A stretch of 58,212 nt of DNA, the filler included, from Stramenopiles sp. TOSAG23-6 (taxonomy: Eukaryota), in NCBI GenBank assembly GCA_900128565.1. It is 8 parts of 8 records of this genome, joined end to end, with 100 filler letters (N's around TTAATTAATTAA, not from the genome) between each part and the next. Parts side by side here need not be neighbours in the genome. Positions count along the whole stretch, not along the records: positions 51,061 to 58,212 come from LT636600.1; 7 more parts are not named here. One strand, written 5' to 3'. The notes beneath the pieces are model-generated. The model saw only the letters and a program-made list of their open reading frames with translations, did not search any database and was not told where the DNA came from. The position numbers and the translations under genes were made by a program. Shown piece by piece: positions 7,209-58,212 of this stretch (the first letter of the stretch is position 1; every line of letters begins with the position of its first letter).

Positions 7209-7308
7209 NNNNNNNNNNNNNNNNNNNNNNNNNNNNNNNNNNNNNNNNNNNNTTAATTAATTAANNNNNNNNNNNNNNNNNNNNNNNNNNNNNNNNNNNN
7301 NNNNNNNN
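7209..7308. other. Artificial contig spacer (N-TTAATTAATTAA-N)
   Basis: 100-nt all-frame-stop linker repeated identically seven times. Confidence 0.97.
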
Positions 7309-14511: not shown

Positions 14512-14611
14512 NNNNNNNNNNNNNNNNNNNNNNNNNNNNNNNNNNNNNNNNNNNNTTAATTAATTAANNNNNNNNNNNNNNNNNNNNNNNNNNNNNNNNN
14601 NNNNNNNNNNN
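14512..14611. other. Artificial contig spacer
   Basis: N-TTAATTAATTAA-N. Confidence 0.97.
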
Positions 14612-21814: not shown

Positions 21815-21914
21815 NNNNNNNNNNNNNNNNNNNNNNNNNNNNNNNNNNNNNNNNNNNNTTAATTAATTAANNNNNNNNNNNNNNNNNNNNNNNNNNNNNN
21901 NNNNNNNNNNNNNN
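21815..21914. other. Artificial contig spacer
   Basis: N-TTAATTAATTAA-N. Confidence 0.97.
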
Positions 21915-21980
21915 TTTCGTACGAAATTTTGTACCTAACAATTTTTAGTTTTTTTTTTGAAATATTTTTCCAAAATACAT
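21915..21980 (+). other. Family intron, 3' half ending CAT
   Basis: TTTCGTACGAAATTTTGTACCTAAC...GAAATATTTTTCCAAAATACAT|GGC GGT. Confidence 0.8.
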
Positions 21981-24299
21981 GGCGGTAGTCGAAACAAAAT
22001 AACTTACAACAACGCGCGAGGAGAAGATGGCTCAACAATGCTTCGTATTTTAAATACGAAAGCATGCAATCATGGTACGATGTATGCTGCATTAGTACAT
22101 CGGATTGATTCATTTCGTCATTCGTCTTTTCGTGACAACGATGGAATTTCAATTAAAAATGATTATTTTTTTGATTTTTCAATACGTTGTATTGGCGGCC
22201 GTGGCGAAACATATTCGTCTCACAATGCCTATAATTTCACCAAAACAATTCAAAGAATGGAAACCTCTGGCGTACCCGTGATGCTTGCAGCGCAAAGTCC
22301 AGTCGAACATGAAAAAAAAGATCTGACAATCCTGGGTCTGCATTTATCAATATCTTTGACAACAACTCGTAGGTTTTTTTTTTCAAATTTAAAAAAATGT
22401 TTTTTGTACGAAATTTTGTACCTAACATTTTTTTTTTTTTATTTTTTTTTTCACAATACATGCTACGAAAATCTTGGAGATGACAAAGATGTTGACATGC
22501 AAAATGTAATTCGATACGGCATGGTATCGATATCGCAAAAGCCAACGCGTAATGTCCAAACGGATCAGATTGAAAAAATGAAAAACAAGAATGTGACAAA
22601 TTTAATTGTTTTCGATGGTGAAAATACCGGGAAAATTGAAGGATCTATTGGTATGAATGTTTTTAAGGTTGCCTTGTGTGCATCTCTTGTTCGCGTCGCT
22701 TTAAAGAAAAAAATAGATAGAAAACATAGAAAACGACAAGATTATTCTCTTAATGATAGTGAAAATGATGTAAAGGATTTTGCAAAATTGGCGATGGTAT
22801 CATTAGGCTTGAATGAGAATGAATCTGTGGAAGTTCCAACAAAACTTAAAGTACGTTTTAAANTTTCCATTTTTTTTTTATTTTATTTTTTTCATAGAAA
22901 ATTCTGTACCTAACGATTTTTTTATTTGATATTTTTTTTTTTACATGACGAACATCAGAAACGTATCAATGCCAAAACATTAACTTCAATCCCAAGTGCC
23001 CATTTGGAAATAAAGGCAGGCTATTTTGCATCTACTGCGTTAGGGGCGACGATTCATTATGATAAACAAAATCAAGAAAATGGTTATATAAAAAAACCAT
23101 TTCCATCGTTATGTCGTGTTGATTCGATTGAATACAATTTGATCGAAAAAATCAGCAGGGAATTTACTAACCCTAAAGGTAAAGTAAAAGCGGCAATGCT
23201 CATCCGATTAGTTGGATTGGAGCCATTCTATTTGGAAAATGATGATTTGGAAAGTGATGATTTGGAAAATGATGATTTGGAAAATGATGATTTGGAAATT
23301 AATGATTGGGAAGTTGGCGTCAAAAACATTGTAAAAAAAATCCAAAATGTTGGTCAATTTCAATGTCATCGTGCAGCGCATGATGTTCGGTATTTTTCTC
23401 AAATCCGATTATATCAGGATAATAAAGAAAAATGTGAAAATGTGATCAGTCATATAATTCGTGTTGTAGATGATGAGACAATCGATAATCTGCAATCGAT
23501 CGAATCAATCAATGATTCTGTGGACAATATCTGTGAAAACTTGGAAATTTGTGGTAATAAAGTAAATAATTTAGAGAAGTACCACATAGCTGCCGATTTG
23601 GCAAAAGTTTTTGGTCTGAAATATGATCGACCTGATAAAGTCTATACGCAAACTTTTCGTGCTAATCGTGGTGAAGGACGAGGTTTTGCTGCAATATCTG
23701 CAACGCTTGCTCGGTATTATGAGAATGATATGAATGGTTTCCCAGGTTCTTCTCTTGGTCTTGCAGGCGAGCGAACTATGTTAAAAGATACTGCCGAGGC
23801 ATTGAAAAGTGTATGTGATGTAGCTTTGGCAAAAAATAAAAATGGTAATGAAAATCATAATGATACTGATGATACTGATGATACTGATGATGATATTAAT
23901 AAAGACAATCCAACAAATCGTGATTATATTGAGAAAGCAATAGAATCACATTTATTGATTGTTGACGATTTTATGGATATTACTGAATATTTGTGTGCTG
24001 TATGTTATGGATTATTTAATGCTATATGTACAATGCATAGATTAACCAAAAATGATAATGACGATGATGATGAAAATGACGATGATGATGAAAATGATGA
24101 TGAAAATGATGATGATGATAATACCAAATTTCTTCCTTTCTGTAAAAAGAATCGGATGATTCATAAAATTATTTCCTTTGATTTTGCAAAAACATATTAC
24201 GATAAATACTATAAAGTTCGTAAAGAAGTTCAAAAGCGTAGTCGTGAAAGTCCTAATGTTGTTGAAAATGGTTCAAAACGTGCTCGTATAAATAGGTGA
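21981..24299 (+). CDS. Hypothetical protein with acidic tracts, 5' partial; exons 21981..22368, 22462..22850, 22947..24299
   Basis: Long open exons joined in frame by two family introns; no recognised domain. Confidence 0.7.
22369..22461 (+). other. Non-canonical GT-AT intron (93 nt, phase 1, stop-free)
   Basis: ACT C|GTAGGT...GTACGAAATTTTGTACCTAAC...TTCACAATACAT|GC TAC; read-through gives an implausible poly-Phe peptide. Confidence 0.8.
22851..22946 (+). other. Non-canonical GT-AT intron (96 nt, phase 0)
   Basis: CTT AAA|GTACGT...CATAGAAAATTCTGTACCTAAC...TTTTACAT|GAC GAA; contains an in-frame stop. Confidence 0.82.
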
Positions 24300-24588: not shown

Positions 24589-26092
24589 CATACGAAATTT
24601 CGTATGTAAAAAAAANTTNCAAAAAAAAANGTAANTTTTTTTTTCGAACGAAATTAAAAAAAATAAATATTTCTTTTGTAATGATACACAAACATAAAGT
24701 CACCAAAATGTTAAACATTAAACAAGAAATTTGAAAGAAATCAATATAATGTTTATTAAAAGGTGGACTGTATCTATGTTAGGGTTAGGGTTATTTTTTC
24801 TTATCAAAAATTCTGAAAAAATAAATACAAAGATTTCGTGTAATATTCAAAAAGAATATCGATTTGAAAATTATTTTTTTAAAAAAATAAAAATTTTATG
24901 TTTTTCTGACAATGAACCAATGCTGTTCTATATCCATGCTCAGTATTGATAATAAGCCACATTGTGTCAGTTAAAAATTTTCAACATTTAACGGCTAGAA
25001 AATTCGTTGTCATTGCATCAAGATGAATAATAATATACCTAGGATTAGTTTTTTTTTTTTTTTCATACCTAATTTTGTACCTAACGATTTTTTTTTTTCT
25101 ACGGTTGTTAGGGTTAGGGTTTGATTTTTTTTTTTTTTTTTTTAGGGTTAGGATTTGATTTTTGATACGAAACGATTTGTTTTTTCAAATAAATTTCACA
25201 ATACACATCATCATACGCTATTAGTGTATCAATATTCCCTTCAATGATGCATTTTTGGTTTGTGTGCTGATCATAAAATGTTATTTGTTTAGTATTTGTT
25301 TTTTTTTCATACGCAATGTTGTACCTAACGATTTTTTTTAAAATATGTACAAAATTCTCTATGAAAAAAAACTAACTAGGATATTTCTATTTCAAAGATG
25401 ATGAATTACATCGGTATAGATAAAAAGAAATTTATTGAACAAAACTTCAAGATTGTATAAATAACAACCGTATCTTCAAATTGAAAAAAAAAAAAAAAAA
25501 ATTATGTATTAACTAGGGTTAGGGTTGCTATTCTTTGTCTAATTATAATCAATTGAATTAAAATGGAACAATATACATCATCTATCAAATAAATTTCATT
25601 CATGATATAATCAATCAAATTACTCTTTATACCAATAAAACGACGGAAAAGCATCAATTCAAAGCATTTCAAAAAAAATTATTTTCATACGAAATTTCGT
25701 ACCTAACAAGAAAAAAAAAAATTATCTAACAATTTTTTTTTTTTTAGGGTTAGGGTTAGGAAAATTTGTAACGATTTGTTTTTGATATAAATTTCACAAT
25801 ACACATGATAGAAACTAAGAATGTATCTCAATTATTTTTACAAAATATTATTTTTTTGTAATGTCTTAGGATTGTAATGTATTAGGAAAATGTCAAATTT
25901 TTTTTTTTTTTTTTTTTTGATTTCATACGAAATGTTGTACTTAACGATTTTTGTTTTTTTCGTACGAAATGTTGTACCTAACAATTTTTTTTTTTTTTAG
26001 GGTTAGGGTTAGGAAAAAAAAAAAAAATAATACCATACAAAAACATTTCATTTAACCAATATTTTTTTTTGATTTTTTTTTTCACAATACAT
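24589..26092 (+). repeat. Cluster of intron-family core motifs interleaved with (TTAGGG)2-3 and poly-T
   Basis: Core-motif copies near 24589, 25063, 25308, 25686, 25924 and 25961; TTAGGG tracts near 24779, 25108, 25142, 25514, 25744 and 25997; ends with acceptor TTCACAATACAT at 26092. Confidence 0.65.
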
Positions 26093-29110: not shown

Positions 29111-29210
29111 NNNNNNNNNNNNNNNNNNNNNNNNNNNNNNNNNNNNNNNNNNNNTTAATTAATTAANNNNNNNNNNNNNNNNNNNNNNNNNNNNNNNNNN
29201 NNNNNNNNNN
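29111..29210. other. Artificial contig spacer
   Basis: N-TTAATTAATTAA-N. Confidence 0.97.
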
Positions 29211-36397: not shown

Positions 36398-36497
36398 NNN
36401 NNNNNNNNNNNNNNNNNNNNNNNNNNNNNNNNNNNNNNNNNTTAATTAATTAANNNNNNNNNNNNNNNNNNNNNNNNNNNNNNNNNNNNNNNNNNNN
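36398..36497. other. Artificial contig spacer
   Basis: N-TTAATTAATTAA-N. Confidence 0.97.
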
Positions 36498-43683: not shown

Positions 43684-43783
43684 NNNNNNNNNNNNNNNNN
43701 NNNNNNNNNNNNNNNNNNNNNNNNNNNTTAATTAATTAANNNNNNNNNNNNNNNNNNNNNNNNNNNNNNNNNNNNNNNNNNNN
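43684..43783. other. Artificial contig spacer
   Basis: N-TTAATTAATTAA-N. Confidence 0.97.
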
Positions 43784-50960: not shown

Positions 50961-51060
50961 NNNNNNNNNNNNNNNNNNNNNNNNNNNNNNNNNNNNNNNN
51001 NNNNTTAATTAATTAANNNNNNNNNNNNNNNNNNNNNNNNNNNNNNNNNNNNNNNNNNNN
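50961..51060. other. Artificial contig spacer
   Basis: N-TTAATTAATTAA-N. Confidence 0.97.
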
Positions 51061-52150: not shown

Positions 52151-55100
52151 TTATTGTTTTGCGTTTTCTGCTTTTTCCCTAGCAATTTGACGCTTTGTTC
52201 GCTTTCCACGAGTTACTACTAAATGATTATTTGTCTTTGTCGGACCAGGAGTTCGCTTTCTCTTTTTCTTCATTTTCTCTTTTTTAAGCTTTTTTATTGA
52301 GAGAGTCTGTGTTTGTACACCTCCAACAACATTCTTTTTACCTACGGTTTCCTTCATAACATGTCTACCATTTGCTTCTTTATTAGCATCATTATCATCA
52401 TTAGCATCATTTGTGTTTTTACTACTCTTTTCTTCTACGTCGCTTTTGATTACACTTTCCGGTTCTCCTTCTACACCATCGGTCATCGCAGATAAGGTGT
52501 ATTCCACAAGACAAGCAGTTTGACAAAGTTGAGAAATACGCTTAAAATGACGCTGAGAATATGCTAATTGGGCTTCGGCGATGGAGTTTATTCCAGGTAC
52601 AGTAGCTAGTCGATCATGAGGAACATTTTGGAGTACAAATTGGATAACTTGCTGTGCCAATGCGCTGTGTCGAGAATTCATATTCCAATCTCGGGCATAT
52701 TTCAACAACCGATATAAGTACTCTTCTTTATTGTCATCTTCTTCTTCCTCGACATCCTCATGATTTTCAATTTCGGAATCCAAAATATGACCGTACTTAT
52801 CAGTCTTAGCAGACGGTTCCAATATAGTGCTCGTAGCGCCACCACCTGCCGATGGCGTGACACAATCTTTACCAACTTTATCAGGAGATTTAGCTATTAC
52901 CTTTGGACGTATATTGATGAGAGTATTCAGAGCCATATGAAATCGTTTTTGGCTTGCTATAATCTGTTTATCATTGTTACTTCTAGATTTTTCCACATAA
53001 CTTTGTTCAGCAGCAGCTGCCATCATTATATCCAATAAGTTACGCAATTGCTGAGGTTTATCCAATTCCAGAGCCATTTTCGCAGCTCGGAGATTTTTCT
53101 TTTTATAGACTAAAGTCATCAACTTCTGCTCTTGAAGCAATTCTTCTTCTCTTTCTTTNACTACATTATCATCTTCTTCAATTGTACAGTCTTCCCACAC
53201 TTTTAGAGATGAATCAGCACCACCGGTAATGATTTTTTTTCCATTTTTTGAAATATCCAATGCCCAAATTTTATCATCGTGAGCTTCAAAGGTGTTTGCA
53301 CATTCGTTAGTTTTAAGAGTCCATAATTTCATGAGTCCATCTGCACCAGTAGAAACAATTTGCATACCAGCATTGAAAAATTTAACTCGCAAAACAGAAG
53401 AGGTGTGTCCTTCGAATGTCGCAATACAAGGGTACTGCCCTTGCATTGACCAAACTTTAACAGTTCGATCGGCGCTACCGGATACAAGACAACGGTCAAT
53501 CGGGGAGAATTGAGCCGCCCAAATACCACGTTTGTGTCCTTTTAAAGTAGCAAGTGATTCACCTCTTTCAATGCACCATATTTTAATACTTTTATCCTGA
53601 GATGCAGACGCTATAATTTTATCGTTTGGAGCAACTGTGATTGCATTAATATCTTTTTCATGGGCGATTTGATTGAACATTGTATTTAATTTCAAAACAT
53701 TATTGAAAACGTCGACTTCCGTAGGTGTTTTCGTAATGCCATTCTTTACATTTTCCCTTAATTTCCTTAATTTATCCATTTTATCTTGTTGAGATATAAC
53801 AGATCTCAAATCCCATAATTTTAGGGTTAAATCTTTACTTCCAGTAGATAACCAGGCACTCGAACTAGATACGCTTGTGATTCGCGAAGGAAACGATACT
53901 GCACCTACTGCATCTGTATGACCTTCACATATTGCCACACAACGTCTTGAGAAAACATCCCACACCCGTGCTGAGTGATCTTTCGATGATGTCGCTACTA
54001 ATCGACCACAAGGTGAAACTGAGACTGCGAGCACAACATCACTATGACCACTTAATAAAGCACAGTCAAATGTATCAGATGACAAGATTCGTGCATTTAC
54101 ACTATTAGTTGCCATAACAATCATGTTTGATTGTGTTTTGGGATTAGGATTAGGGTTAGGTGGAATCATCTTTATATCAATAATTTCATCATTAAAACCA
54201 ACAAATTGCTTTTTCAAATCCAATGATGGTAACTGCAGATCATTAGGGATAGGGTTAACAGCCGCGGGTTTGATATCCATTGACATAAACATTTGATCTG
54301 AAGTGACTACAACAATTTCGGCTGCGTTTGTACGACAGAATAAATTAGTATATTCTACTTTATATTTTCTTTTTCTCTGATTTTTTTCACTTTTGTTGTC
54401 AGATTCATTCATAATCATTTTACATCTCCACCTGGCACCTTCAGGATATAAAGACCACACTTTTAGTATGCCTTTTTCACCCGCAGTGACAAATTGAATG
54501 TCTCGTTTTTTTGTCTTTTTTTTGTCAGAGATTTGCTTAAGGTTAGGGTTAGGAGGTAGCACATGTATACCTTCGAGAACTTCATACATTGGTACAGTTT
54601 TAAGTAACGAAAAGTCACGAAGGTTCCATACATTTACAACTTTATCGCGACCAGCAGTAAGCATGGTATATCCATCATTAGAGAATCCAAGAGATGTGAC
54701 TGAGCTCATGTGAGAACGCAAGACAGCGACACATTTGTAAGTGACGAGGTCCCAAATTCTTACGGTGCAATCATCAGAACAAGTAAAAAGTTGGAGGCGT
54801 CCTGCTATAGGATGAAATTTTACAAGGGATATGATTCCAGAATGTCCAACAAATTTATGAGTACAGTGTCCCTTGGCGAAATCATGCACTAGAACAACTT
54901 TATCTGATCCACCAGTTGCAATAAGTGTTCCACTTGGATCAAAATCCATAGAAAGTGCTGGACTTTTATGTGCTTTGAAACTGTTTGTACATTTCTTTTC
55001 AACTAAATCCCAAGAACGTATCAATAAATTGCGACTCGCAGTCACTAACTCACGATTATTTGGACTTAATGCAAATGTCATTAATTCTTCAGCTTCCACT

Positions 55101-55303
55101 GCCTTGTCCATGGCCTTAATAGACTGAGTAACTAGGCCCGTGTTCCAATCTAATAGTTTCACGTCTAAGTTGCATTGAGAGGCCAAGAATTCTTCATTAT
55201 TAGATACCTCGACTTTACCACCAGTATATGCAGATACATGCTGTTTTTGTATACGCCAAGATCGAGACAGACCTTTGTCTTTGACCTTGGTTAAATGCGA
55301 CAT
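52151..55303 (-). CDS. TBL3: U3 snoRNP WD40 protein UTP13/TBL3; probable start MSHLTK at 55303
   Basis: YTGGKV, GHCTHKFVGHSG, GFNDEIIDI, AHEKDIN, LKGHKRGIW, AHDDKIWAL, EQKL, WNMNSRHSALAQQV, YSQRHFKRI. Confidence 0.92.
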   Translation of the reverse strand: MSHLTKVKDKGLSRSWRIQKQHVSAYTGGKVEVSNNEEFLASQCNLDVKLLDWNTGLVTQSIKAMDKAVEAEELMTFALSPNNRELVTASRNLLIRSWDLVEKKCTNSFKAHKSPALSMDFDPSGTLIATGGSDKVVLVHDFAKGHCTHKFVGHSGIISLVKFHPIAGRLQLFTCSDDCTVRIWDLVTYKCVAVLRSHMSSVTSLGFSNDGYTMLTAGRDKVVNVWNLRDFSLLKTVPMYEVLEGIHVLPPNPNLKQISDKKKTKKRDIQFVTAGEKGILKVWSLYPEGARWRCKMIMNESDNKSEKNQRKRKYKVEYTNLFCRTNAAEIVVVTSDQMFMSMDIKPAAVNPIPNDLQLPSLDLKKQFVGFNDEIIDIKMIPPNPNPNPKTQSNMIVMATNSVNARILSSDTFDCALLSGHSDVVLAVSVSPCGRLVATSSKDHSARVWDVFSRRCVAICEGHTDAVGAVSFPSRITSVSSSSAWLSTGSKDLTLKLWDLRSVISQQDKMDKLRKLRENVKNGITKTPTEVDVFNNVLKLNTMFNQIAHEKDINAITVAPNDKIIASASQDKSIKIWCIERGESLATLKGHKRGIWAAQFSPIDRCLVSGSADRTVKVWSMQGQYPCIATFEGHTSSVLRVKFFNAGMQIVSTGADGLMKLWTLKTNECANTFEAHDDKIWALDISKNGKKIITGGADSSLKVWEDCTIEEDDNVXKEREEELLQEQKLMTLVYKKKNLRAAKMALELDKPQQLRNLLDIMMAAAAEQSYVEKSRSNNDKQIIASQKRFHMALNTLINIRPKVIAKSPDKVGKDCVTPSAGGGATSTILEPSAKTDKYGHILDSEIENHEDVEEEEDDNKEEYLYRLLKYARDWNMNSRHSALAQQVIQFVLQNVPHDRLATVPGINSIAEAQLAYSQRHFKRISQLCQTACLVEYTLSAMTDGVEGEPESVIKSDVEEKSSKNTNDANDDNDANKEANGRHVMKETVGKKNVVGGVQTQTLSIKKLKKEKMKKKRKRTPGPTKTNNHLVVTRGKRTKRQIAREKAENAKQ

Positions 55304-55553
55304 TTGGTCTCTGAAGTAGTTGCAAAATCTTTCAATTACGACTACTATGCTAAGTTGTGTGTGCGTTGTTTTCACTTTGGTTTCACTGACTATTTCTGGT
55401 TTCAGAAACACGAAATATAGCCGAAATATATAAAAAAAATCCTAACCGTTGTTTTTTAGGATCTCATCATCATCTCATATCTCGAAATCTCAAACTCAAA
55501 CACACGCTTTTTTCATCTTGTTTTGGCCCTAGGTTACATTGTTAATTTAAAAG

Positions 55554-55940
55554 ATGGCTGCCCCACAAAGTATGTGGAAGAAAGGTCTATTTGGATGTTG
55601 TGATCTTGGGATAGAACAGATCCTTTGTTTATTAATGTGTGCTCCCTGCGCGTATGGAAAGGTAATGGAGCGCCTCCAGATTGGGTCGTGTCTTGGTTGT
55701 TGCATTGGTGGTTTCTGCTGTTCGTGCTGCAACAGAGGTAAAATACGAACCATATACAATATAGCCGAAGAGCCTAGTGACTCCGTAGCTTGCCTATGTT
55801 GTCCTTGTGCCTTCTTACAGGAAATGCAAGAAGTAAAGATCAAAGAGCAGCTCAAATTTGGATTATTCGGTGCGATAACAAAGGAAAATGGTCAACCATT
55901 AGAACCACCAAAGGCAGTATTTTCTGGTTTTTCACGTTAA
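55554..55940 (+). CDS. PLAC8-family Cys-rich protein
   Basis: WKKGLFGCC, CAPCAYG, RGKIRTIYNI, CLCCPCAFLQEMQEV. Confidence 0.88.
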   Translation: MAAPQSMWKKGLFGCCDLGIEQILCLLMCAPCAYGKVMERLQIGSCLGCCIGGFCCSCCNRGKIRTIYNIAEEPSDSVACLCCPCAFLQEMQEVKIKEQLKFGLFGAITKENGQPLEPPKAVFSGFSR

Positions 55941-56259
55941 AGATATTTTTTTGATTATTTCCTAGCTCGGAATTGGTGAATTTTTAATAGCGCTTTATTT
56001 ATTTCATGGAGAATTCAATATAAAGCCTCTGAAGCGAACCAAATTTTTTCTCATATTTTACTGTTTTATATTTTTTATTGAACCCTAACCCTAGAATGAA
56101 AAGTGAACATTCGTCAGTTCATTCAAAAACCGAGCCGAGCTCGCCTCGACACAACAGAAATTGACATATATCGATAAAATTTAATTCATGAACTGTGTCT
56201 GCTGATAGGTAGCTATCTAGAGTCGCTACTACAATTAGAGCTATCTACTGTAGTTACGT

Positions 56260-56480
56260 GTGAGTGCACAGGCATTAGCTATCCTGTTCGATTCTCTGGA
56301 AGCTAATAAAAATGAGGACTCTGTGACTGATAGTATTAGAACTATGACGGGTTGCTGTCCAGGAACTTGTCGCTGTTGCCAGTGCATGAGTTCAAATGTG
56401 AGTGCACAGGCATTAGCTCTCGTGGTCGATTCTCTGGGAGCTAAAGAAAAGAGTGACTCTGTAAGTGCCAATAGCCTATT
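56260..56480 (+). repeat. Diverged 138-bp-period duplication at the sulfotransferase 5' end
   Basis: GTGAGTGCACAGGCATTAGCT...CGATTCTCTGG.AGCTAA...GACTCTGT at 56260 and 56398. Confidence 0.75.
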
Positions 56481-58159
56481 ATCATTAATTTCAGATATCA
56501 AAGAAACACAAAATAGGCATTCAAAGGCTAAGCAATACTCTACTATACATTTGAACGAAGAAATTTCAATTGAAAAAATGTTGAAAAAAGCTAAATCTGA
56601 GGTTTGGCAAGAGGGCTATGACCCCTGGGCTTTTTTTCCACGTGATTTTGAGCGTTTTCTTGTTACAGGAAATTTCCCTTCTTGGAAGACTCTTACGGCC
56701 ACTACGCCTCCAATTGCAAATAAAAGCTTTGACGTTGATATGTGTTTTATTATAGGCTGTGGTCGTTCTGGAACAACTCTTTTAGCTTCATTGTACGTTG
56801 TCCACTTTCAATTTCAATTTTTTTACATTTTCGTACGAAATTTCATACCTAACAAAAAAAATCAAAAAAAAAATATATTTTTTCACAATGCTTACTATCG
56901 ATGTGGAAAAAAGTTCTTTTTATAAATGAACCAAGACTTCTTTGGCTCTCTGCAGGCTTCCCAGAAATAGATGTATGGTCAACTTTATCAAACAAAAGAC
57001 GAGGTCGCTTGCAATTTTTGCCATGTTTAACATCAAGAAATCTTGTTGCAATTGATAAGCTAAAAATGATATATCAAAATGTTGTGACTGCTGCGAACTC
57101 CAACCATAACCCCAACCCTAGTAATGACTCACCAGTGAGAAGGATGATTGTAGAAAAATTCCCTGAGCATTCCTTTCGAGTGCCGTTTCTGTCAAAATGT
57201 TTCCCTCAAGGATATGTCATCGTTATGCTAATTTTACCTATTTTTTTGTTTTTACCGAATTGTTTTTTCGTTTTTTCATACGAAAATTTGTACCTAACAA
57301 AAAAATCAAATTTGACATATTTTTTCACAATGTATACGGTTTATTCATATAATCAGATCTCCCATGAAGGTTATTCGTTCAATATCTAAATTTTCATCAT
57401 TTGCCTGGTATGTAGGTTTTTTCAAAATTTCATTTTTTGGTAGTATATTTCGTACCTGACAAGAAAAATCAAATTTTTAAAATTTTCTTCAAATATCTTT
57501 TTTTTACATTTCAAAATTTCATTTTTTTTTCGCCTAAGAATTTTCTATACATATCAAATTGTAAATGTAATATATTTTTCACAACGCATGGAGCGACAAA
57601 CAAAAAGTGGCAAGAATTGCGTCTTCTAGCACTGACTTTTGGTTTCTCTGAATCAGATGTATGTTTTAGGGTTAGGGTTATTTTCGATTTTTTTTTCGTA
57701 CGAAATTTTGTACCTAACGAAGATACATTTTTTTTAAACGAAAAAAAAAAATATTTTCCTAAAATAAATCTCTCTCGCCTTGAATCTGAAGCTTCGAATA
57801 GAGGTAAGGCAGAGGTCGAATGGACCGTATCGATACTCTCAATTTTGCGACAGTTCAACCAGTTCAACGTCATACAAAATGAAAACTCTAACCCTACATA
57901 TTTTTTTTTGAAATACGAAGATTTAATTACCAAACCTATAGAGACTATGAACAAAGTTGCTACATTTTTAGGCTTGCTAAAGCCTAATGAGGAAATTATT
58001 CATCAAATTCAAGCCTTTATTTATAACCCAAATTCTTCAAATACAAAAATGAAACAAACAATCCCTGAAGGTTCAGTGTGTCATATATACAAGAATATAT
58101 ACAAGAGAGAGTGGCATCGATTAACGTTACAAGTGATGAAAACGTTTGGATATTGTTGA
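56386..58159 (+). CDS. P-loop sulfotransferase; exons 56386(or 56344)..56792, 56894..57211, 57336..57411, 57590..57658, 57770..58159
   Basis: Spliced GCGRSGTTLLAS-L-LSMWKKVLFINEP, VEKFP, FPQ-G-RFIHIIRSP..VIRS, LKYEDLITKP..TM.KV..FLGL, M..FGY. Confidence 0.85.
56793..56893 (+). other. Non-canonical GT-TT intron (101 nt, phase 2)
   Basis: TCA TT|GTACGT...TTTTCGTACGAAATTTCATACCTAAC...TTCACAATGCTT|A CTA TCG; the intron contains no AG. Confidence 0.82.
57212..57335 (+). other. Probable AT-AT intron (124 nt, donor ATATGT, phase 2)
   Basis: CAA GG|ATATGT...TTTTCATACGAAAATTTGTACCTAAC...TTCACAATGTAT|A CGG gives FPQGRFIHIIRSP; exact donor uncertain. Confidence 0.65.
57412..57589 (+). other. Non-canonical GT-AT intron (178 nt, phase 0)
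   Basis: TGG TAT|GTAGGT...TTTCGTACCTGAC...TTCACAACGCAT|GGA GCG. Confidence 0.75.
57659..57769 (+). other. Non-canonical GT-AT intron (111 nt, ends AAT, phase 0) with (TTAGGG)2
   Basis: TCA GAT|GTATGTTTTAGGGTTAGGGTT...TTTCGTACGAAATTTTGTACCTAAC...CCTAAAATAAAT|CTC TCT. Confidence 0.78.
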
Positions 58160-58212
58160 TTAAAAGGTAAAATAAAATAGGATAATTGGAATTTTATTAT
58201 TTAATATTACCC

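Follow-up and report, generated by a model that had tools for sequence, protein, structure and literature searches.

The stretch of DNA analysed here (the window, 58,212 nucleotides, filler included, from Stramenopiles sp. TOSAG23-6, assembly GCA_900128565.1) closes with an AT-rich contig (51061-58212, LT636600.1; G+C about 34-38%) bounded by N-runs and a TTAATTAATTAA spacer, and it is on the + strand of this contig, at 56344-58159, that we find a five-exon sulfotransferase gene whose four introns appear to end in AT or TT rather than in AG. Three-frame translation of 55400-58212 gave five open stretches on the + strand which jointly make up one protein of 433 residues followed by TGA. The exons (56344-56792, 56894-57211, 57336-57411, 57590-57658 and 57770-58159) sum to 1302 bases with no internal stop, and the putative start codon lies at 56344. 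Exon 1, delimited by the reading frame, ends in the loop binding 3′-phosphoadenosine-5′-phosphosulfate, GCGRSGTTLLAS, and two bases of the following codon. Exon 2 reads …LSMWKKVLFINEPR … EKFPEH … CFPQG and was placed with the help of 32 homologues and an RNA contig over 57050-57211. Exon 3 encodes RFIHIIRSPMKVIRSISKFSSFAWY, with an RNA contig over 57336-57381, its 3′ end being taken from profile scores and a W-[YF]-G motif, and exon 4 encodes GATNKKWQELRLLALTFGFSESD, for which both homologues and an RNA contig over 57590-57656 are available. The C-terminal sulfotransferase region, which is likewise matched by RNA contigs, is contributed by exon 5 and terminates with the TGA at 58157-58159.

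The identity of the protein is well defined. Exon 5 alone matched the sulfotransferase family profile PF00685 with 31.6 bits (cut-off 22), and the P-loop of exon 1 scored 13.8 bits with PF13469, under the cut-off of 27. With exon 2 as query against 1.84 billion representative proteins, 32 homologues were retrieved at E ≤ 0.001, the best at 48% identity; the 26 that were examined are sulfotransferase-like proteins of 285 to 525 residues displaying the same motifs in the same order. The GCGRSGTT at the end of exon 1 and the IIRSPMKVIRS of exon 3, which we take to be the 5′-phosphosulfate-binding loop (GxxRSGTT) and the downstream R...S motif, respectively, are both also present in 29 of the 32. 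Translation, profile match and homologues thereby bear out a preliminary description of this DNA, made from the sequence alone, which had proposed a sulfotransferase gene with four inserts between 56793 and 57769. Close relatives were not recovered: with exon 2, a search at near length gave no candidate and one at longer lengths gave 93 candidates, none significant; with exon 5, a search at longer lengths gave 88 candidates, none significant; and a metagenome scan returned two distant loci only (30% and 55% identical to parts of the query), which were not used.

The four introns occupy, on the + strand, positions 56793-56893 (intron 1, 101 bases, GTACGT...CACAATGCTT, GT..TT), 57212-57335 (intron 2, 124 bases, ATATGT...CACAATGTAT, AT..AT or, slid by one base, TA..TA), 57412-57589 (intron 3, 178 bases, GTAGGT...CACAACGCAT, GT..AT) and 57659-57769 (intron 4, 111 bases, GTATGT...CTAAAATAAAT, GT..AT). 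The 5′ GT is thus canonical in three of them, intron 2 being the one that starts differently. None ends in AG, and introns 1 and 2 do not contain a single AG. The terminal pairs are of three kinds, since GT..AT recurs in introns 3 and 4; of the four different non-canonical introns announced in the preliminary description, all are indeed without an AG end, but they represent three different terminal pairs and not four.

The removal of introns 2 and 4 could be followed in RNA. A run search with 56250-58212 gave 15 runs, of which 14 hold at least part of the query, and six of these 14 are recorded as RNA. Contigs of four polyadenylated (polyA) metatranscriptome runs (X6, X8 and X9 from one study, X7 from another) were placed on 53160-58212. 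The intron 2 joint, from 57211 to 57336 with 124 bases skipped, was found both in X8 (record 21, 162 + 46 bases, 0 mismatches) and in X9 (record 24, arms of 120 and 28 bases). One base is common to both sides of this joint, which accounts for the two readings AT..AT and TA..TA; a two-base shift, which would yield AT..AC, is precluded by the GG at the end of the upstream exon. The intron 4 joint, from 57656 to 57768 with 111 bases skipped, was found in X8 (record 22, 67 + 95 bases with 0 and 1 mismatches, respectively). Here, two bases are common to both sides, so that the removal may be read as 57659-57769 GT..AT or, equivalently, as AT..AA or TG..AA. Across both joints the reading frame is recovered, and the motifs FPQ-G-RFIH and SESD-LSRL appear in the form known from homologues such as P0004, P0007 and P0010. 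Accordingly, introns 2 and 4 are precisely removed in polyA RNA, and the AT..AT intron proposed earlier within FPQ-G-RFIH is the one that the RNA displays. Neither of the contrary outcomes named in the preliminary description, namely use of the GT at 57216 as the donor of intron 2 or absence of transcription, was observed: this GT was unused in the RNA, and contigs lay on the exons. Exon 1 is represented by contigs at 56286-56543 and 56443-56669, gapless over 56286-56669, and exon 5 by contigs at 57768-57862, 57788-57963 and 57838-58029, covering 57768-58029. The contigs listed over the unique sequence of the gene all fall on exons, with an exon match of 99 to 100%. Among the joints listed for the contigs of the four polyA runs, none corresponds to intron 1 or intron 3. 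The end of record 22 of X8 coincides with 57590, where exon 4 is predicted to start; this is a weak hint only, as record 21 stops at 57381, within an exon.

The exact ends of introns 1 and 3 were inferred from homology. Continuity of the reading frame alone permits thousands of donor/acceptor pairs and is not decisive. Of the 32 homologues, the 24 that have GRSG and at least 280 residues went into a profile (P0002, P0009, P0012, P0017, P0020, P0023, P0029 and P0032 were left out), and every in-frame, stop-free removal was scored against it. For intron 1, the highest score, 285.3 bits, was that of 56793-56893 (GT..TT, junction ASLLSMW), a value common to two slid placements giving the same mRNA and to three synonymous placements; the slid equivalents are 56792-56892 and 56791-56891. 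It was followed by 56789-56889 (CA..AT, 283.2 bits), 56792-56889 (TG..AT, 279.9 bits) and 56793-56890 (GT..TG, 279.0 bits). The distance from GCGRSG to [NDH]EPR is exactly 23 residues in 27 of the 29 homologues (of 32) that have both motifs, with 24 in one and 31 in another, and this spacing is obtained together with the top score only from 56793-56893 or its slid or synonymous equivalents. In addition, when the family copies are aligned (see below), the intron 1 end CACAATGCTT shares its column with the CACAATGTAT end of intron 2, which RNA has confirmed, and with the CACAATACAT end seen in other copies. The GT..TT intron devoid of AG that had been predicted here would thus be correct, as judged from homologue spacing and profile score. 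For intron 3, 57412-57589 (GT..AT, junction FAWYGATN; slid equivalents start at 57410, 57411 and 57413) scored best of 1429 in-frame candidates, with 288.1 bits, in agreement with the predicted CAT end; 57408-57585 (GT..AC, junction W-H-G), 57416-57593 (GT..AG, junction W-Y-V) and 57409-57589 (TA..AT) reached 285.3, 281.2 and 276.6 bits, respectively. A W-x-G motif is found in 25 of the 32 homologues, where x is Y in 16, F in six, and H, S or P in one each, W-[YF]-G accounting for 22 of the 25. The GTAGGT donor of intron 3 recurs in a family copy at 22369.

Alternatively, introns 1 and 3 may be real but cut elsewhere, at 56789-56889 (CA..AT) for the former and at 57408-57585 (GTATGT donor, AC end) or 57416-57593 (GT..AG) for the latter. 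The scores are close (283.2 versus 285.3 bits for intron 1, 285.3 versus 288.1 bits for intron 3), the GTATGT at 57408 is the consensus donor of the family, and homologue P0004 has the W-H-G that GT..AC predicts. However, the CA..AT cut would fall four bases upstream of the donor hexamer, unlike in the other three introns, and would yield a cysteine found in none of 28 homologues, while the GT..AC end would lie four bases short of the end position of all other family copies. As to GT..AG, it scores 6.9 bits lower, replaces by V the G of W-x-G, which is G in all 25 matched homologues, and would give a product that does not match the genome at 57590-57593, where record 22 does so with 0 mismatches. 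This explanation, although the strongest of the alternatives considered, therefore appears unlikely.

All four inserts are members of a repeated intron family of about 100 bases. The 24-base core TTCGTACGAAATTTNNTACCTAAC, with three mismatches or fewer, has 15 matches in the window as compared with 0 expected from 100 shuffles; it is present in three of the four introns, and intron 3 has a shortened form, TTTCGTACCTGAC. The parts common to the aligned copies are a GTATGT-like start, a T-rich stretch, a palindrome with a CTAAC box, and a T-run with a terminal block, for which copies at other places in the window have CAAAATACAT or CACAATACAT, the aligned 3′ ends being ...AATACAT. The short 3′ word TTTTTCACAAT was not enriched in the window (15 matches versus 9.75 expected; four of 100 shuffles reach 15). 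A CTAAC-like putative branch box occurs in all four introns, 38 to 130 bases before the end. On the + strand, it reads TACCTAAC at 56846-56853 in intron 1, where the family palindrome TTCGTACGAA precedes it, at 57291-57298 in intron 2 and at 57711-57718 in intron 4, and TACCTGAC at 57453-57460 in intron 3, which has a second, degenerate box, CCTAAG, at 57533-57538. The G+C content is 21-23% in the introns as compared with 37.5% in the exons. A two-base AT repeat flanks most copies; introns 3 and 4, like a copy at 2408, have AT before the donor, so that the boundary slides by two, the intron 1 boundary slides by two on TT, and intron 2 is without such a duplication. In short, all four introns belong to a short, AT-rich and mobile-looking intron family, one of them as a compound copy. 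Two traits by which introners are recognized can be compared directly: many similar intron copies are present (the 15 core matches), and precise removal from the mRNA is seen for two of the four introns.

The compound member seems to be intron 3. Its first ~98 bases constitute a full family element with the end ...TTTTTTTTACAT at about 57509, and this is followed by a second 3′ half comprising the degenerate box, a T-run of its own and the CACAACGCAT end; the frame is recovered only if the intron is cut at its outer ends. Intron 4 carries telomere-like TTAGGG repeats at 57668-57681, and such repeats also adjoin several of the family cores at about 25100-26010, in a cluster that seems to be non-coding.

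What sets the 3′ end of these introns can be approached by comparing their last bases. Positions −10 to −1 of introns 1-4 read CACAATGCTT, CACAATGTAT, CACAACGCAT and TAAAATAAAT. The last base is T in all four, position −2 is A, A, A and T, and position +1 is G, A, G and G, so that the near-constant terminal T, the variable −2 (A/T) and the possibly variable +1 (G/A) of the preliminary description are all seen across the gene. Intron 2 combines the A at +1 with a T at −3, positions at which the family otherwise shows G and C, respectively; this is a single case and possibly due to chance. All four 3′ ends lie at one offset in a shared terminal motif, made of a T-run, then CACAAT, CACAAC or TAAAAT, then four bases. 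Introns 1, 2 and 4 each have five unused ATs between the CTAAC box and the end that is used, and intron 3 has 17; since earlier ATs are skipped in all introns, the dinucleotide cannot be the sole 3′ signal. Downstream of the used end, the next AG follows at a distance of 20, 21, 4 and 22 bases in introns 1-4, respectively; it was unused in both RNA-proven cases. The distance from the box to the end is 41, 38, 130 (52 from the second, degenerate box) and 52 bases in introns 1-4, and 33 to 44 bases in four other family copies. The idea that the 3′ site is set by a motif or a distance rule thus finds support in its first half, given the fixed offset within the terminal motif and the skipped ATs, but not in its second, since the distance from the branch-like box, at 38 to 52 or more bases, is not constant. 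The sequence comparison supports a 3′ end that would be defined in a motif-like manner, or would simply coincide with the element's own end. Because the copies are young relatives, conservation of the 3′ block does not prove that it is read; the conserved motif may reflect inheritance rather than a signal.

Copies of the family are also conspicuous in the RNA runs beyond this gene. Hundreds of short contigs (371 in X9) match the family core and then run into unrelated sequence; the polyA libraries would therefore commonly contain unspliced or excised family copies that stem from other loci or relatives, perhaps captured via the A-runs of the introns. Short contigs over 56850-56883, 57271-57305 and 57687-57721, with one to four mismatches and loose ends, represent other copies or low-complexity sequence. 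Joints from 57298 to 57688 and from 57301 to 57691 (389 bases skipped, with foreign letters between) tie the intron 2 core to the intron 4 core and were rejected as stemming from other family copies rather than from this gene.

As for the surroundings, the sulfotransferase gene adjoins an open reading frame of the PLAC8 family (55554-55937, + strand, single open frame; 40 bits as compared with a cut-off of 34.4), and its other neighbour encodes a WD40 protein with a Utp13 domain (52154-55441, − strand, 1096 residues, also a single open frame). No contig of the four RNA runs was placed on 53160-56200, which includes part of the WD40 gene, the PLAC8 gene and spacers; this is evidence for neither side. 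A tandem duplication of about 111 bases in the exon 1 region, at 56266-56450, gives rise to the similar peptides VSAQALAILFDSLEANKNEDSV... and VSAQALALVVDSLGAKEKSDSV...; its first copy lies upstream of the putative start codon, and the RNA contigs nevertheless extend back to 56286. The window as a whole consists of contigs strung together by N44-TTAATTAATTAA-N44 spacers (7209-7308, 14512-14611, 21815-21914, 29111-29210, 36398-36497, 43684-43783 and 50961-51060), which cut two copies of the intron family, at 21916 and 36400. No hit was obtained when the window was scanned for Rfam families and tRNAs.

Taken together, our data point to a transcribed five-exon sulfotransferase gene in which four copies of a mobile-looking family serve as introns and are spliced at their own AT or TT 3′ ends, never at AG, a reading to which we would assign a probability of roughly 0.78. 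Several points weigh against it. Introns 1 and 3 have no RNA joint, and the competing cuts, CA..AT at 56789-56889 and GT..AC at 57408-57585, fall only 2.1 and 2.8 bits below the preferred ones, respectively. The RNA comes from environmental samples, as assembled contigs at low depth (3.9 to 7.3), and the intron letters are read from the assembled genome, not from the cells that made the RNA; the terminal letters rest on one assembled DNA sequence. Environmental libraries may moreover contain DNA, and the population may include an intron-less allele.

The last point would matter if the joined contigs did not derive from splicing at all, but from DNA or RNA of an allele or strain that lacks the introns, or from template switching when the libraries were prepared. 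Indeed, presence/absence polymorphism of introns is described for introner families (PMC9860276). Yet the intron 2 joint was recovered in two runs, albeit of one study, the two sides share only one base in intron 2 and two in intron 4, too few for typical template switching, and both joints are in frame and rebuild conserved protein motifs. Together with the 99 to 100% exon match and the purely exonic position of the listed contigs over unique gene sequence, this makes such an origin very improbable.

Removal by other machinery, either the minor (U12) spliceosome or a structure-guided process such as has been proposed for euglenid non-conventional introns and Amoebophrya introners, seems to us even harder to sustain. 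U12 introns have the donor [AG]TATCCTT and a branch box about 10 to 15 bases from the 3′ end. Intron 2 does start with AT, and the ACCTAAC box loosely resembles the U12 box TCCTTAAC, but the donors are GTATGT-like or ATATGTCA, not ATATCCTT or [AG]TATCCTT, and 38 to 52 or more bases separate the box from the end. Regarding structure, intron 2 folds better than its shuffled versions (z = −2.74) and contains a perfect 8-base inverted repeat, ATATGTCA (57212-57219) and TGACATAT (57313-57320), the latter about 15 bases before the 3′ end, although this single case may be due to chance. Folding and end pairing are, however, inconsistent between copies, with whole-intron fold z values of +0.45, −2.74 and −1.64 and a terminal complementarity that is weak and uneven (end-duplex z from −2.5 to +1.9), and no terminal inverted repeats of 8-20 bases common to all copies were found. 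Because end pairing and folding are weak and uneven, the sequences lend no support to a structure-guided mechanism of the Amoebophrya or euglenid kind. Ciliate-type DNA excision, which keeps TA at the junction, was rejected on the grounds that the intron 2 junction is GG|AC without TA.

The cutting would be carried out by the U2-type (major) spliceosome, as the donor and the CTAAC box suggest. Each copy brings a yeast-like donor (GTATGT, GTACGT, GTAGGT or ATATGT), then the palindrome with its CTAAC branch-site-like box, and finally the T-run followed by a terminal block ending in T, and it would be removed exactly at the 3′ end of the element, at AT in three introns and at TT in one. During the second step, the two terminal Gs of an ordinary intron touch, and an A in position +1 can be accommodated provided that the intron ends in C. 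The spliceosome of this organism may accept a terminal U within the context of the element's 3′ block, and the +1 purine perhaps pairs with this last U (G-U or A-U), which would fit both the G and the A observed at +1; the pairing between +1 and −1 and the role of the 3′ block are proposals only, a further point against the overall interpretation. By duplicating AT on insertion and being excised together with one AT copy, the element would leave the mRNA unchanged. This is the introner principle as set out in PMC9860276. It is tempting to speculate, although on present evidence we regard it as doubtful, that the major spliceosome of this lineage has come to recognize a terminal U instead of AG as its 3′ site, this U being read within the element-borne block (T-run, CAAAAT-like box, four bases) and pairing with either purine at +1, whereupon an AT-duplicating transposon would become a perfect intron. 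If true, excision of such a transposon as a perfect intron would explain its spread through genes.

Few signals of eukaryotic genes are as constant as the AG at the end of introns, which the spliceosome reads directly at its catalytic centre. A family with a textbook donor and branch box but an AT end, tolerating TT as well as A at +1, would thus amount to a natural experiment on site choice in the second step, and it would illustrate the mutual fit of a mobile element and the splicing machinery of its host. In our search of the literature, which did not extend to supplements that may list splice-site types, no GT..AT intron family was found described in a stramenopile or other protist, and a single-cell stramenopile paper (PMC5778133) mentions introns in its methods only. 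A 2025 introner survey considers AG and AC 3′ sites only and drops families with unfamiliar sites unless they are RNA-supported (PMC12130899). Gene predictors and introner surveys limited to AG or AC acceptors would mis-model such genes and miss such families.

Four known systems invite comparison, the closest being those of Amoebophrya and Fritillaria borealis. The introners of Micromonas, Aureococcus and dinoflagellates (PMC9860276, PMC12130899, PMC11282704) resemble the present family in that many near-identical short introns reside in unrelated genes, with copies outside genes too, in their low G+C content relative to exons, in a possible two-base AT duplication at many copies, and in a precise removal that leaves mRNA length unchanged. 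In contrast to the AT or TT end found here, however, the families described in these texts are GT/GC/GA..AG or AT..AC. The non-canonical introners of Amoebophrya (PMC7789003) are likewise transposon-like repeated introns of a marine protist, with borders other than GT-AG and RNA support. Yet they have no preferred terminal dinucleotides and carry inverted repeats of 8-20 bases and direct repeats of 3-5 bases, whereas the present introns display a conventional donor and a branch-like box, GT..AT being dominant, and lack a consistent terminal helix. The non-canonical U2-type introns of Fritillaria borealis (as reported via PMC11282704) are transposon-derived and removed by a modified major spliceosome, with AG-AT among their terminal pairs; their 5′ end is non-canonical too (AG-AC, AG-AT), while here it is GT-like, then ATGT. 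Finally, animal U2-type AT-AC introns and rare non-AG acceptors (PMC1557818, PMC4176328) are reported to show that a G-to-A change at +1 is tolerated by the major spliceosome, as it would be here; but these are isolated cases in which A at +1 goes with a last C, whereas here it goes with T and concerns a whole family. Transposon-like introns with non-canonical borders are known; the present family, with its AT and TT 3′ ends, would add to them.

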